From a virus (Duplodnaviria > Caudoviricetes): DNA of 60,514 nucleotides. Each line of letters begins with the position of its first letter. The first letter of the stretch is position 1. Below, one piece after another: positions 48,979 through 52,572 of the stretch. A model generated the notes under the pieces. That model searched no databases, was not told the DNA's origin, and was given only the letters and a program-made list of their open reading frames with translations. Where the stretch lies: positions 1-60,514 of IMG/VR virus record IMGVR_UViG_3300025483_000009. The stretch is one strand, 5' to 3'. The translations under genes and the position numbers were made by a program.

Positions 48979-49385
48979 TTATTCAAAAGTTGACAGAGAT
49001 CATCAAACCAAAAAAGCAGGAGGTTGAAACTCAAACCTCTTTGCTTGAAAAGAAGGCAGAACCTTTTCAGCGTGGTTACACTGGGACTGTTCCTGCACCA
49101 CCTTATCTCAAAGAAGATGAGTGGTTTGATCAACCAGTGTTGTCTGAAAAGCAACTTGAGATTCGTGCTCAACTTGAGAAAGAGAATCATCTTATCCCTC
49201 TGTCCGAAGATCAATCTCCCAAAGAGGTTGACAACATCCATGAGGTGATGTACAATATTGCTACCAGTGGAGGCAAGACCACTACTCAACTCAACCCTAT
49301 GCCTGAGTTGGGTGGTGGTTCTGAAAACTTCCAGTCTGGTCCTAGTGGTTGGATGTCTGGTACAGGTATGCGCCAGTTTGGTTAG
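48975..49385 (+). CDS. Hypothetical protein
   Basis: ATGA-coupled to the lysozyme gene. Confidence 0.65.
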   Translation: MIIQKLTEIIKPKKQEVETQTSLLEKKAEPFQRGYTGTVPAPPYLKEDEWFDQPVLSEKQLEIRAQLEKENHLIPLSEDQSPKEVDNIHEVMYNIATSGGKTTTQLNPMPELGGGSENFQSGPSGWMSGTGMRQFG

Positions 49386-49403: not shown

Positions 49404-49477
49404 GCTTCAGTAGCTCAGTGGAACAGAGCATCGCTCTTCTAAAGCGTTGGTCGCTGGTTCGAGTCCAGCCTGAAGCG
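49404..49477 (+). tRNA. tRNA-Arg (TCT)
   Basis: GCTTCAG/CTGAAGC acceptor stem, loop CTTCTAA, TTCGAGT T-loop. Confidence 0.9.
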
Positions 49478-49481
49478 CCTT

Positions 49482-49563
49482 GTCGGTATGGCGGAATTGG
49501 TAGACGCGCCAGGTTTAGGTTCTGGTGTCTTATGACGTGGAGGTTCAAGTCCTCTTACCGACA
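49482..49563 (+). tRNA. tRNA-Leu (TAG)
   Basis: GTCGGTA/TACCGAC acceptor stem, loop TTTAGGT, long variable arm. Confidence 0.92.
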
Positions 49564-49566
49564 CTC

Positions 49567-49638
49567 GCTCGAATAGCTCAGCGGTAGAGCAGCACCTTTA
49601 CACGGTGAATGTCGGGGGTTCGATCCCCTCTTCGAGCA
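49567..49638 (+). tRNA. tRNA-Val (TAC)
   Basis: GCTCGAA/TTCGAGC acceptor stem, loop TTTACAC. Confidence 0.92.
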
Positions 49639-49666
49639 TTACTCATATGAGGTTAAATGCTTACAA

Positions 49667-49915
49667 ATGTTATCCGCTCGATGCAAAGTATGCAACAAAG
49701 AGTTGACCAGCACTAGCAAAGTCCAGTGCTGTGGTTGCTCTAATCAAATGCATGTCGTAGATGATACGGTTGGCGCAAATGACTTGAGTCAAGTTGTACT
49801 ACTGAATCATAAAAAGAATATTAAATATCAGGGAATTCTGACACATGATGACCTAAAATACCAGGAAGAACGACGCAAACGAAAAGTTCGTAAACTTGAT
49901 TTTGAGGAACGCTAA
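49667..49915 (+). CDS. Small Cys-rich (Zn-binding) hypothetical protein
   Basis: CKVC...CCGC; GAGG upstream. Confidence 0.7.
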   Translation: MLSARCKVCNKELTSTSKVQCCGCSNQMHVVDDTVGANDLSQVVLLNHKKNIKYQGILTHDDLKYQEERRKRKVRKLDFEER

Positions 49916-50121
49916 TGATCAGTCTCGATGACCGTTATCACTCTTACCTTCACACCAACAAATGTTTTTATATTGATGGGGTATGTGAAAAGGTAAAGGG
50001 TTATGGTTTTGAGTGTGATAATGTTAATATTATTGGGTACTATGTATTGACAACTAACTACAAGTTGCATTATAATCTCGAAGAACAGTTCACTTATAAA
50101 GAAAACCTTATCGGGGTATAG
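49915..50121 (+). CDS. Hypothetical protein
   Basis: GAGG RBS, TAATG coupling; stop lies inside tRNA-Pro. Confidence 0.6.
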   Translation: MISLDDRYHSYLHTNKCFYIDGVCEKVKGYGFECDNVNIIGYYVLTTNYKLHYNLEEQFTYKENLIGV

Positions 50122-50183
50122 CGCAGAGGTAGCGCGTTCCGTTTGGGGCGGAAAGGTCGCAGGTTCGATCCCTGCTACCCCGA
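50112..50183 (+). tRNA. tRNA-Pro (TGG)
   Basis: CGGGGTA/TACCCCG acceptor stem; TTCCG-TTTGGGG-CGGAA anticodon arm. Confidence 0.92.
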
Positions 50184-50212
50184 CTTGGTAACCTACCAAC
50201 AACATTATTAAG

Positions 50213-50872
50213 ATGAAAATTTTTCTAGACAGTGCAGATGTAGATGCAATTGCACAGCGATTTGCCACGGGACTTATCGATGGCGTGACTACAAATCCAA
50301 CTCTTATTAGAAAGAGTGGTAAAGATCCTAAGAAAGTTTACCGTCAACTTCGTGACATTGGTATCACCGATATCAGTATGGAAGTTGTAGGTGCAGTTGG
50401 TGAGATGTTTACTGAAGCACGAGAACTTTACACTGAGTTCAAAGATGTCTGCACAGTAAAACTTCCTTGTACTCTCGATGGTCTGCAAGTTTGTGAGTCC
50501 ATCTCAGCACAAGGCATTCGCACTAATGTTACCCTTATCTTTAGTGCTGCTCAGGCAATCCTAGCAGCAAAAGCAGGTGCTACATATGTCTCTCCATTCA
50601 TTGGTAGATATGATGACAACAGCATCAGTGGTTTGGAACTGGTTCGTTCTATCACTAGCATCTATCAAGTGCAGGGTGTAGAGACAAAAGTGCTTGCTGC
50701 TTCCCTGCGTGATGTATACAAAGTGTCTCGTTCTTTCTACAACGGAGCACATATTGTTACCATGCCTGTTGGTGTCTTTGATAAGATGTACAATCATGTT
50801 CTGACTGACAAAGGTCTAGAACTTTTCCAGAAAGACTACGACGAAACGATGGCAATGTTAGGCAATGATTGA
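50213..50872 (+). CDS. talC: Transaldolase (TalC/FSA family)
   Basis: FLDSAD, GVTTNPTL, NVTLIFS, YVSPFIGR. Confidence 0.96.
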   Translation: MKIFLDSADVDAIAQRFATGLIDGVTTNPTLIRKSGKDPKKVYRQLRDIGITDISMEVVGAVGEMFTEARELYTEFKDVCTVKLPCTLDGLQVCESISAQGIRTNVTLIFSAAQAILAAKAGATYVSPFIGRYDDNSISGLELVRSITSIYQVQGVETKVLAASLRDVYKVSRSFYNGAHIVTMPVGVFDKMYNHVLTDKGLELFQKDYDETMAMLGND

Positions 50873-51071
50873 AGTAACATTAGAAGAGTTTGAAAAAAAC
50901 TTCGATGCATATATGGATCGCATCGAAACCGAAGGAGCAGAGTTCCTGATTCGTAAACCTGATGGCAAAGCAGTTGTTGCTGTGCCAGCTGGACAACTGG
51001 AACAAATGTCAGAGGCAGTTGGTGAAGACGACTGGTATAATACTTACAACGACCACGACGACGCTTCATGA
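50865..51071 (+). CDS. Phd/YefM antitoxin-like small protein
   Basis: VTLEEFEKNFDAYMDRIE...FLIRKPDGKAVVAVP pattern; acidic C-terminus. Confidence 0.55.
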   Translation: MIEVTLEEFEKNFDAYMDRIETEGAEFLIRKPDGKAVVAVPAGQLEQMSEAVGEDDWYNTYNDHDDAS

Positions 51072-51310: not shown

Positions 51311-51709
51311 ATGTCTTGTTCTAACATTTCTACTCATGTTGATAATGCCATCGAAGAGGTGCGTCATGCACTGATTCATGCGCTGGAAAACAAAACTGAA
51401 TCTCGCGTCCAAAAACTTTTTGATGTTATTGCTGTGCTTGACGAAGTAAAGCGTGACCTAGGTTACAGTATTTCTGAGGGTAATCCTAAGGAATTCTGGA
51501 CTGATGCTACTGATTATTATGCTACTGACACTAGTCCGTATCGTTTTGATCTGAACTCTGATTACCTCAGCAGCACCCGCGTTGGTGGTGATCTCGATGC
51601 ACTCGATGATGTTGTCACCTTTGGTGCTGCACAACCAGTCGATCTTCCCACCAGTCTTGGTAAGGATGTTATTGACTTTGGTAACTACAAGTCTCGGGAA
51701 GACTCTTAA
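51311..51709 (+). CDS. Hypothetical protein
   Basis: 132-aa acidic ORF. Confidence 0.7.
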   Translation: MSCSNISTHVDNAIEEVRHALIHALENKTESRVQKLFDVIAVLDEVKRDLGYSISEGNPKEFWTDATDYYATDTSPYRFDLNSDYLSSTRVGGDLDALDDVVTFGAAQPVDLPTSLGKDVIDFGNYKSREDS

Positions 51710-51945
51710 ACTCGCCCTGGTGGAGCTAAGCAGAATCGCTGCTGGTCCAGTCTCGGGATGACTTTAAACGCGCCCTGGTCGGGATGGGTCATCGACCCCT
51801 CGGGTTTCTTTGTTCCTAAAACAAAGTGGTGCGGGTGATTGCTGCCGCCTGGTTTACATGTTCCAGTTAAAAATATGTTGGTGGTAAATCCCCTTCCGTG
51901 TGGTTGATTTCCTATTTTGCATCTGAACTAAAATAGGTGGCGAGC
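51690..51945 (+). ncRNA. Structured ncRNA candidate, possibly manA-like
   Basis: About 250-nt intergenic region with repeated hairpin modules each followed by TGG; near tRNAs and directly 5' of a gene. Confidence 0.6.
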
Positions 51946-51957
51946 CTGGAGTTACTC

Positions 51958-52494
51958 ATGTTTTTCATTCCACATTTTCAATATCATATCGAAGAGTGGG
52001 CAGATCAAAAAGATCAAATTCTTTCTGACCTGTATGCTTTTCATTCGCGTGTTGTGGAATGTAATGAGGGCGACACTATGCACTCTAGTTACTATGAGGA
52101 TACCGATTACTCAGAGTTTCAACCATTCATTGATATGATTGCCCCATATCTACGAATGATGAGTGCAGAGGTCCTTGAAAAGGGATACTCAGAAAAACCG
52201 ATTGATGATATCTCTCGCATCTGGTTTCAAATCCAGAAGCAGTATGAGTATCACAGTCTCCATAATCATGGCATGAGGGGTTGGTCTGCAGTCTTCTATG
52301 CAGACTTCAACCCTGCTGTCCATGAAGCAACCAAGTTTTACTGTCCTATCTACACGGTAGACGGTGAACTTGCTACCTTCCAACCTAGTGTACGAGAGGG
52401 TGACCTTTTTATTTTCCCTGCACAAATTAATCATGAGTCGGTTGTGCAACGCAGTGAAATTACTAGGACAATTATTTCATTAAACCTACACTAG
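51958..52494 (+). CDS. 2OG-Fe(II) oxygenase-like protein
   Basis: HNH, EGDLFIFPAQINHES, RTIISLN; GGAG RBS. Confidence 0.8.
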   Translation: MFFIPHFQYHIEEWADQKDQILSDLYAFHSRVVECNEGDTMHSSYYEDTDYSEFQPFIDMIAPYLRMMSAEVLEKGYSEKPIDDISRIWFQIQKQYEYHSLHNHGMRGWSAVFYADFNPAVHEATKFYCPIYTVDGELATFQPSVREGDLFIFPAQINHESVVQRSEITRTIISLNLH

Positions 52495-52501
52495 ATTTTT
52501 T

Positions 52502-52572
52502 GCGGGTGTGGTGTAGCGGTAACATGCGAGCCTTCCAAGCTCTTGTCACGGGTTCGATCCCCGTCACCCGCT
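52502..52572 (+). tRNA. tRNA-Gly (TCC)
   Basis: GCGGGTG/CACCCGC acceptor stem; GAGC-CTTCCAA-GCTC anticodon arm. Confidence 0.92.

Follow-up and report, generated by a model that had tools for sequence, protein, structure and literature searches.

Between an open reading frame (ORF) of unknown function and a gene for a 2OG-Fe(II) oxygenase, the + strand of a 60,514-nucleotide (nt) stretch of a Caudoviricetes virus (IMG/VR record IMGVR_UViG_3300025483_000009; hereafter the window, whose numbering is used throughout) carries an array of five like units, A1, A2, B1, B2 and B3. This region is an extended, modular form of the known wcaG RNA (RF01761), and not a new RNA class. In searches with the Rfam 15 models, where the wcaG gathering cut-off is 42 bits, the wcaG model aligns over its full length (model positions 1-98) to 51800-51892 with 60.8 bits, and cmscan places it again at 51746-51840 (49.4 bits, above the cut-off) and in a third register at 51848-51951 (34.2 bits, below it). 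That three overlapping registers can be fitted follows from the succession of like units at this locus; the model, as defined in Rfam, comprises a B-unit, a GC hairpin and another B-unit, with the outer hairpins preceded by GUUU and followed by UGGYG. The wcaG junctions UGGUGCGGA, CCUGGUUUC and GUGGCG are all present in the window, and the corresponding columns are invariant or nearly so in 39 aligned cores. Fifteen of 18 related isolate loci carry wcaG with scores of 45-94 bits, the best-scoring register matching 51800-51892. At E <= 1e-5, 62 phage records match, all of them Synechococcus, Prochlorococcus or cyanophage entries, and in most of the best-matching records among these 62 myovirus entries the block from A2 to B3 shows 70-83% identity. 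The wcaG-bearing relatives whose taxonomy was looked at belong to Kyanoviridae.

An earlier note on this DNA, made from the sequence alone, had described two near-identical 5' units, the pairings GGGTC/GACCC and GCGG/CCGC, and three further hairpins, all of which are found where it had placed them. The GRTTT-hairpin-TGGYG repeat that it had read from these three hairpins is accounted for by the repeat inside the wcaG model together with one additional copy. The note had pointed to the cyanophage motifs manA and wcaG, had suspected a manA-like RNA with an extra duplicated 5' module, and had proposed a cmscan search against Rfam and a test for covariation among homologues. The search returned full-length wcaG, and covariation is present in the core, the A unit and the GC hairpin. 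The manA part of the suggestion did not hold: manA (RF01745) gives no match at E <= 1 in the whole window, nor at E <= 10 in 51500-52100, and a manA identity is rejected. The duplicated 5' module is real and lies outside Rfam 15, since no family matches over the A units, including the self-cleaving ribozyme classes and T-box. Besides wcaG and tRNA, the Rfam searches (E <= 1; E <= 10 in 51500-52100) gave only weak, sub-threshold chance rows off the A units, and ARAGORN finds no tRNA over the array.

By the earlier note's own rule, most of the novelty is gone once a known cyanophage motif is matched over its full length. The core family is known already; what extends it past the Rfam entry is the A unit, the pseudoknots and the context. 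The main text of Weinberg et al. 2010 (PMC2864571), figures and supplements aside, speaks of pseudoknots for manA, epsC and STAXI, and not for wcaG. The pseudoknots and gene contexts of wcaG may already stand in Additional files 1-3 of that paper, or in Table S7 of the S-CREM1 study.

Fold of the wcaG core and of the A unit

For the core, 39 distinct sequences were aligned with 9 nt of 5' flank, and pairs were counted on a hand-written structure. The predicted pairs are formed in 95.3% of cells as compared with 81.6% in shuffles, a level that none of 500 shuffles reaches, and controls with slid structures give 40-58%. Eighteen of the 24 pairs change on both sides, pairs of the flank-loop pseudoknots among them. 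P1 is 100% and P3 97.9% paired, with all six pairs of each changing on both sides. The pseudoknot helix PK2, formed between the four bases 5' of GUUU and the first bases of the B2 loop, is 96.2% paired with three of four pairs covarying (CUGG/CCAG, CCUG/CAGG, CAGG/CCUG, CUAG/CUAG and others), and PK1, its counterpart at B1, reaches 83.8%, the alignment being imperfect there. Among 17 full arrays, PK3 at B3 is 95.6% paired, the B3 stem 84.1% paired with six rows misaligned, and GC hairpin 1 is paired in 94.1% of cells with three of nine pairs changed on both sides. With these flank-loop helices paired, each wcaG hairpin is read as an H-type pseudoknot, and the array consists of five small H-type pseudoknot units following one another. 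The earlier note had thus been correct to suspect pseudoknots, and covariation in relatives supports stems and pseudoknots alike. A and B units are built alike, with stem I of 4 bp followed by a second stem and an A-rich third loop, and with UGGYS left unpaired on the 3' side; GC-rich hairpins stand between most units. A U.G pair in P2 is invariant in 39/39 cores, and both PK1 and the GC hairpin contain many G.U pairs; this fixes the RNA to the + strand.

Three further pairings were considered. A helix of CGGGAUGGG with CCCCUUCCG could enclose the core; both sides are invariant, and a double change is found in S-PM2 only (n=1). RNAalifold pairs the A tail with GGUGGCG, with one-sided changes only, and pairs GGUGG with CCCC in the linker at 51884-51902, both sides again being invariant. 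Within the same linker, CCCCUUCCGUGUG is invariant or nearly so across the 17 arrays.

The A units were collected by two pattern scans of IMG/VR together with the isolate loci, which gave 117 distinct units: 72 with a 12-nt tail, 38 with a 10-nt tail and seven others, three of which look like chance. The first IMG/VR pattern (N{6,10}) does not catch the long-tail units of the window itself. In the long-tail units, loop base l2 pairs with tail base e9 in 72/72 (CG 49, UA 23), l5 with e8 likewise in 72/72 (GC 37, AU 31, UA 4), and l4 with e11 in 64/72 (GC 50, AU 14, other 8). The loop GGG had been proposed to pair with the downstream CCC, and this is borne out at two of the three positions. The third pair, l5:e10, forms in only 40 of the 72 distinct units and fails in 32, and a simple GGG:CCC helix, only 81.5% paired overall, is rejected; l5 instead covaries perfectly with e8, and l2 with e9. 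Since stem I was fixed by the patterns, a covariance model was built and run on 80 loci fetched by a wcaG P2 pattern. In the 59 distinct wcaG-anchored hits stem I is 98.2% paired, and three of its four pairs covary (AGUC/GACU, CGUC/GACG, UGUC/GACA, AGAC/GUCU, CGCC/GGCG and others).

In the window, A1 scores 39.7 bits (E 6e-8) and A2 52.7 bits with covariance model R1. The A-unit pattern used for the chance test, AGTCNNGNNNNGACTN{9,10}CNCTGGT, occurs at 51690 and 51749 and nowhere else in the 60.5 kb, with 0 matches in 100 shuffles, and a repeat search also recovers the A1/A2 duplication, which recurs in S-CAM1, S-CAM3 and the IMG/VR relative L191. Variant units retain a loop-tail pseudoknot: that of L068 and L099 (identical over the 296 nt shown) has a clean 5-bp helix, and a second variant, in L022 and L075, has another; in L075 the unit is aligned as wcaG P1 in a match of 76.4 bits. 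After some A units a second conserved sequence follows, UGGUC and then GUUACGCCCGUCNCCUGAGUANGNGAAAAACUGCUC (L143, L174, L188, L200, L235, L244, L245 and L317), which may be a further module of the same grammar.

A scan for the long-tail A unit in 185,579 bacterial and archaeal species genomes gave six hits, none of them cyanobacterial. Four break the pairing rules, and the two that obey them lie in metagenome-assembled genomes assigned to Altiarchaeales (L312, WJJK01000092.1) and Porticoccaceae (L317, JAYQEC010000001.1), on contigs that carry the usual downstream modules and are probably mis-binned cyanophage contigs. A host origin of the A unit is rejected on these grounds. Judged from sequence comparison, the A units are a phage-restricted variant of the B-unit topology that belongs to no Rfam family.

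Borders of the array in the window and in relatives

The features of the region are listed in the table below. The last codons and the TAA stop (51707-51709) of the upstream ORF fall within A1, an overlap that the earlier note had observed. This 132-residue ORF has no Pfam match, and relatives carry a different upstream gene there, for a hypothetical protein or a tryptophan halogenase, yet one that still ends in the UAA of the A unit. The hairpin between A1 and A2 has, when read by eye, a counterpart GGUAG/CUACU in the same place in S-CAM1. At the 3' end, the tail GCCUGGAG supplies a GGAG (51948-51951), a likely Shine-Dalgarno sequence 6 nt before the ATG at 51958, and tRNA-Gly begins 8 nt past the oxygenase ORF. 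In the window, neither a promoter nor a terminator is called next to the array, and strong or consensus sigma-70-like promoter sites are located at 49228-49256 and 50047-50076; the array thus probably lies inside a longer transcript.

Table. Features of the wcaG array and its immediate surroundings in the window
Feature	Positions	Strand	Basis or detail
Upstream ORF, 132 amino acids (aa), function unknown	51311..51709	+	ORF list; phrog_604 E 1.4e-9
Unit A1	51690-51722	+	
A1, AGTC-TCGGGAA-GACT..CGCCCTGG	51690-51720	+	read from sequence
A1 stem I, AGUC/GACU	51690-51693 / 51701-51704	+	sequence
A1 remainder: 7-nt loop UCGGGAA, A-rich linker, tail CGCCC, then UGGUG	51718-51722 (UGGUG)		
Short GC hairpins between units	51729-51743, 51780-51802, 51831-51848	+	
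Hairpin between A1 and A2, AGCAG-AAUCG-CUGCU, then UGGUCC	51729..51743	+	sequence
Unit A2	51749-51780	+	
A2, AGTC-TCGGGAT-GACT..CGCCCTGG	51749-51778	+	read from sequence
A2 parts: stem I AGUC/GACU, loop UCGGGAU, tail CGCCC, then UGGUC			
GC hairpin 1, CGGG..CUCG closing GGGUC-AUC-GACCC	51780..51802	+	RNAalifold consensus
GGGTC/GACCC	51786-51790 / 51794-51798	+	sequence
Canonical wcaG core (RF01761): B1, P2, B2	51800..51892	+	60.8 bits
Unit B1	51803-51831	+	
B1 stem, CTTTGT/ACAAAG	51808-51813 / 51821-51826	+	flank 51802-51804 pairs loop 51815-51817
UGGUG in core	51827-51831 and 51879-51883	+	
P2 hairpin, GCGG/CCGC and neighbours	51831-51834 / 51845-51848	+	sequence
Unit B2	51849-51883	+	
B2 hairpin, ACATGTT/AATATGT	51856-51862 / 51872-51878	+	sequence
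B2 pseudoknot (predicted)	stem 51856-51861 / 51873-51878		flank 51849-51852 pairs loop 51863-51866
Conserved linker GUAAAUCCCCUUCCGUGUG, where a second P2 would stand	51884..51902	+	
Unit B3	51903-51942	+	
B3 flank GUUG with loop CAUC	51903-51906 / 51920-51923		one U.U mismatch in window
B3 stem, CCTATTTT/AAAATAGG, then UGGCG	51911-51918 / 51930-51937; UGGCG 51938-51942	+	
wcaG 3' tail AGCCUGGAGUUACUC	51943..51957	+	sequence; Rfam consensus tail aligned there
Downstream ORF, 2OG-Fe(II) oxygenase, 178 aa from ATG	51958..52494	+	PF13759 E 6.6e-9; phrog_81 E 7.6e-26
tRNA-Gly (UCC)	52502..52572	+	ARAGORN; Rfam tRNA 62.9 bits

The context of the array in relatives was evaluated in a set chosen by wcaG and not by the A unit, comprising 69 rows with 700 nt upstream and 74 rows with 260 nt downstream. 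The A pattern AGTC-N7-GAC[TA] occurs upstream of wcaG, within 700 nt, in 43/69 rows, where about 0.02 per row would be expected by chance. The gap between A unit and core is <=130 nt in 20 rows, 131-250 nt in four and >250 nt in 19, and in 14/14 wide gaps inspected it is filled by an ORF of 63-89 aa, drawn from at least four unrelated families. One family of hydrophobic ORFs of 73-79 aa (MSKS..LRYIGN..) stands between A unit and core in L023, L032, L046, L085, L091, L108 and L134, with its start following a small hairpin, GGGAGCAAACCCC, that contains a likely ribosome site. CA-rich leaders with ACACACA runs separate the hairpin after the A unit from the next start codon in L048, L067, L112, L125, L129, L150 and L162.

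Downstream of the core, a T6 run is found in 57/74 rows and a + strand tRNA in 9/74, eight of which are tRNA-Gly. The T run lies 60-79 nt past the P2 pattern in 52/56 distinct cases; it is preceded by a covarying hairpin that usually carries GTTGCATAA or a TTGACA-like sequence in its loop, and just after the T run a TATAAT-like box follows in 44/56 distinct cases, a strict sigma-70 rule being satisfied in 17/56 as compared with 6.8 in shuffles. The composite thus runs from the hairpin through a T6-7 run to GTATAAT, and in L096 (4015-4052) the terminator and promoter calls overlap. It resembles the PeSL terminator/early-promoter cassettes, here in Prochlorococcus-type cyanomyoviruses. Neither P2 nor the 3' part of the core shows locus-specific complementarity to its own terminator (-7.75 vs -7.51 kcal/mol for permuted pairs, 7% of which are as low; -9.40 vs -9.68 in a second test). 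A terminator/promoter hairpin after the core, together with this lack of complementarity, makes the Prochlorococcus-type wcaG look like the 3' end of an upstream unit and not like a leader.

The Synechococcus-phage clade to which the window belongs has a GC hairpin without T run, and then tRNA-Gly(UCC) within 3-5 nt. In S-RSM4, S-CAM1, Sf-CH11, S-H9-2, S-WAM2 and S-CAM4, tRNA-Gly directly follows the array with no oxygenase there; an ORF is inserted between array and tRNA-Gly in the window, S-RIM32 and Syn1, and between A2 and the core in S-CAM3. In L107 an ORF starts directly after the wcaG tail. The next gene in the window being an oxygenase followed by tRNA-Gly, the array does not occupy the position upstream of exopolysaccharide or high-light-induced genes typical of wcaG; hli genes stand further downstream in relatives. 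The A unit also occurs without wcaG, as a single unit between tRNA-Leu and tRNA-Thr in S-RIM50 and S-RIM2, and after tRNA-Leu in S-RIM8, with an ORF standing before tRNA-Thr. Twenty-one of the 192 distinct A contexts start 0-6 nt after a predicted tRNA 3' end, and at the two tRNA-A junctions that were read the tRNA gene does not encode CCA.

Several neighbouring features may be recorded. A degenerate third copy of the 5' half of the A unit (70% identity) lies at 51653-51672 within the upstream ORF, beside a repeated coding motif DV(V/I)xFG (51608-51625 and 51665-51682). Just 3' of talC, at 50865-51071, is an ORF resembling Phd/YefM-type antitoxins (PF02604, E 4.5e-8); relatives annotate the same gene, with no toxin partner seen adjoining it. 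The window carries five phage tRNA genes at 49404-50184 and 52502-52572 (Arg-UCU, Leu-UAG, Val-UAC, Pro-UGG and Gly-UCC). Small 'hypothetical protein' ORFs are annotated in GenBank over the array in S-RSM4 (SRSM4_042), Syn1 (Syn1_206) and S-WAM2 (P29B0810_190), and the start of a coding sequence enters it in S-RIM32; the loci concerned are L003 1538-1651, L004 1537-1626, L010 1536-1649 and L001 1564-2130. These ORFs are probably annotation artefacts on a structured RNA.

Function of the array

As for function, our preferred inference is an element that acts in cis on RNA processing, stability or translation. More specifically, the array could be a folded border element that shields ends made by processing and sets the local context for translation, a reading that we judge to fall just short of probable. 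The array would be transcribed within a talC ... oxygenase - tRNA-Gly unit and serve its own RNA in cis as an insulator of compact fold, marking the borders of cistrons and tRNAs and shielding the adjoining RNA ends after processing. In the window it would also present or occlude the ribosome site of the oxygenase ORF. The comparative data show a + strand RNA fold that is modular and phage-restricted and that stands at borders between cistrons, tRNAs and terminators. The array is probably not a terminator-type riboswitch of the downstream gene.

Several observations weigh against the border element. The minimum free energy of 51680-51960 is unremarkable (z = -0.43; 64/200 shuffles fold as well), and because of this the support for the structure comes from covariation in relatives and not from thermodynamics. 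The patterns by which A units were fetched fixed AGTC, GACT, one G and CTGGT, and therefore these columns are uninformative in the alignment of the 72 long-tail units. The A-unit pairs do not form one helix, since l2:e9 and l5:e8 nest with each other but cross l3:e12 and l4:e11. Only 11% of the A contexts (21/192) abut a tRNA. The strong conservation of the unpaired junctions (UGGUGCGGA, CCUGGUUUC, GUGGCG) would rather be expected of a pocket for a ligand or protein than of a generic stabiliser. Finally, metatranscriptome contigs cover parts of the array in 4/4 runs (X3 record 16 spans 51845-51937 and X2 record 10 spans 51882-51963, both without differences), but such records, being contigs, give no starts, ends or strand, and may reflect DNA carry-over.

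A joint reading of A unit and core is more doubtful. According to this, the 32-nt A unit would be a new phage-restricted motif class that brackets gene cassettes and tRNAs together with the wcaG core, in the form of a minimal H-type pseudoknot with unusual, perfectly covarying crossing pairs (l2:e9 and l5:e8 across l3:e12 and l4:e11). The unit might then serve as a nuclease-resistant, 5' cap-like fold protecting the RNA left by tRNA 3' processing, as an autonomous processing signal, or as one of the sites in a multivalent array that would hold the NCCA ends of tRNAs by its UGGN motifs.

Among the alternatives to a border element, ligand sensing, the role proposed for wcaG by Weinberg et al., stands first, but we consider it unlikely. 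The core would bind a metabolite and thereby expose or hide the GGAG of the oxygenase, the tandem copies giving a sharper response. What makes this reading attractive is the strong conservation of the unpaired junctions; the fold is also compact and pseudoknotted, and wcaG was rated 'y' for riboswitch by Weinberg et al. 2010 (PMC2864571). The overlap of the wcaG tail with the Shine-Dalgarno sequence in the window, paralleled by the ORF start after the tail in L107, would suit such a switch, but in most relatives the array is followed by tRNA-Gly or the core by a terminator. With the T6 runs read as intrinsic terminators, the rows downstream of the core present no consistent gene to be controlled, and the TATAAT-like box after the T run likewise speaks against control of what follows. 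A terminator-coupled switch is judged improbable, since no locus-specific complementarity of core or P2 to the terminator is found. Among the papers listed in a full-text search from 2011 on, none presents wcaG as an RNA together with 'riboswitch candidate' or 'orphan', and the cyanophage papers that name it report, in the passages concerned, no ligand.

It is rather improbable that the array is a multivalent binding RNA, a decoy or scaffold in which the five or six UGGYS copies bind a phage or host protein or the NCCA ends of tRNAs. In T-box leaders UGGN pairs with the NCCA 3' end of tRNA, and by sequence logic UGGUG, UGGCG and UGGUC would each pair without mismatch to common tRNA 3' ends. 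One short unpaired motif is repeated regularly after every unit, and the array is linked to tRNA genes, those seen in the phages not encoding CCA. However, apart from wcaG and tRNA, neither T-box nor any other Rfam family matches; one UGG copy, in CCUGGUUUC, is already used for PK2 within the RNA, and most Prochlorococcus-type loci have no tRNA nearby.

A role at the DNA level, with the modules as PeSL-like homology patches that shuffle small genes in a hyperplastic region and the RNA fold as secondary, is highly improbable as the main explanation, but may coexist with any of the other readings. In its favour, the modules enclose ORFs that are unrelated from phage to phage, the upstream genes that end in the UAA of the A unit belong to different families, and the composite after the core is similar to PeSL cassettes (PMC2839356, PMC4122927). 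Recombination requires identity, however, and not covariation, and the compensatory changes with many G.U pairs (A.C on the other strand) indicate selection on the + strand RNA. It is hardly credible that no RNA element exists: the small GenBank ORFs in S-RSM4, Syn1 and S-WAM2 might suggest coding, and the minus strand of UGGUGCGGA plus P2 superficially resembles a T arm with CCA, but no ORF is conserved, loop lengths vary by 1-5 nt among relatives with indels not in threes, the frame in L133 stops after four codons (an ATG in L056 reads through the core), covariation and G.U pairs fit only a + strand RNA, ARAGORN gives no tRNA there, and the A-unit pattern is absent from shuffles, so that short coding ORFs, a decayed minus-strand tRNA and chance hairpins are all discarded.

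Comparison with known RNAs and implications

The wcaG RNA was described from T4-like cyanophages and marine sequence, with unknown function (PMC2864571). The array shares with it the full-length match above the cut-off, three hairpins with conserved junctions and the cyanophage/marine occurrence. It differs in that the unit is iterated over three overlapping registers, with two A units not covered by Rfam on the 5' side and a third B hairpin on the 3' side, in the predicted flank-loop pseudoknot of each hairpin, and in its neighbours, a 2OG-Fe(II) oxygenase and tRNA-Gly instead of exopolysaccharide or high-light genes. As for manA, it occupies the same marine cyanophage niche and co-occurs with wcaG in some genomes, for example about 400 nt apart in S-CREM1 (PMC9964418), but its architecture is different and the window holds no match to it.

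Similarities are also noted with PeSL, the composite promoter-terminator cassettes of T4-type phages (PMC2839356, PMC4122927; the word 'cyanophage' does not appear in the main text of the latter). As in those, a hairpin with TTGACA-like loop stands at constant spacing after the Prochlorococcus-type core and leads into a T run and TATAAT, and conserved modules bracket variable small ORFs. In contrast, the window has no such cassette beside the array, and the A and B units are RNA structures with covariation and not promoter or terminator signals. STAXI, a motif of Enterobacteriales with unknown function that Weinberg et al. 2010 (PMC2864571) describe as mainly one pseudoknot repeated two or three times and associated with mobile DNA, resembles the array in its repeated pseudoknots. 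Its sequence, hosts and gene neighbours are others, and no Rfam STAXI match is found in the window.

In plant viral 3' untranslated regions an upstream pseudoknot domain is combined with a tRNA-like structure, and small plant-virus exonuclease-resistant RNAs form pseudoknots between a loop and the 3' tail. The array likewise places a run of small pseudoknots directly 5' of a tRNA element, and the A unit, in which a hairpin and an A-rich linker precede a 3' tail with which the loop pairs, resembles the latter RNAs. The analogy is one of shape only, as the array is followed by a real tRNA gene and the host is bacterial. T-box leaders have in common with the array an unpaired UGGN beside a helix and complementary to tRNA 3' ends, but the array lacks a specifier loop and an antiterminator and repeats the motif five or six times. 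Unlike in sponges of the CsrB/RsmZ type, where GGA stands in loops, UGGYS here lies in single strand 3' of the putative pseudoknots.

For the window, the core finding is a known family, and the extension deserves the attention of a specialist. Since 2010 wcaG has stood as an orphan 'riboswitch candidate', and cyanophage genome papers, including the relevant passages of PMC9964418, routinely annotate it as a regulator of the downstream gene. If the extended picture is true, annotators gain a second motif to mask, because GenBank records place spurious small ORFs over these RNAs, and end mapping, nuclease assays and binding tests with tRNA or protein would replace metabolite screens. The comparative picture suggests that wcaG is one module of a longer pseudoknot chain, with the A unit as its regular upstream partner, and that what usually follows wcaG is a tRNA or a terminator/promoter hairpin and not an ORF under its control. 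Should any of the roles considered for the A unit prove true, wcaG would not be a riboswitch of the downstream gene, contrary to the reading held since 2010.

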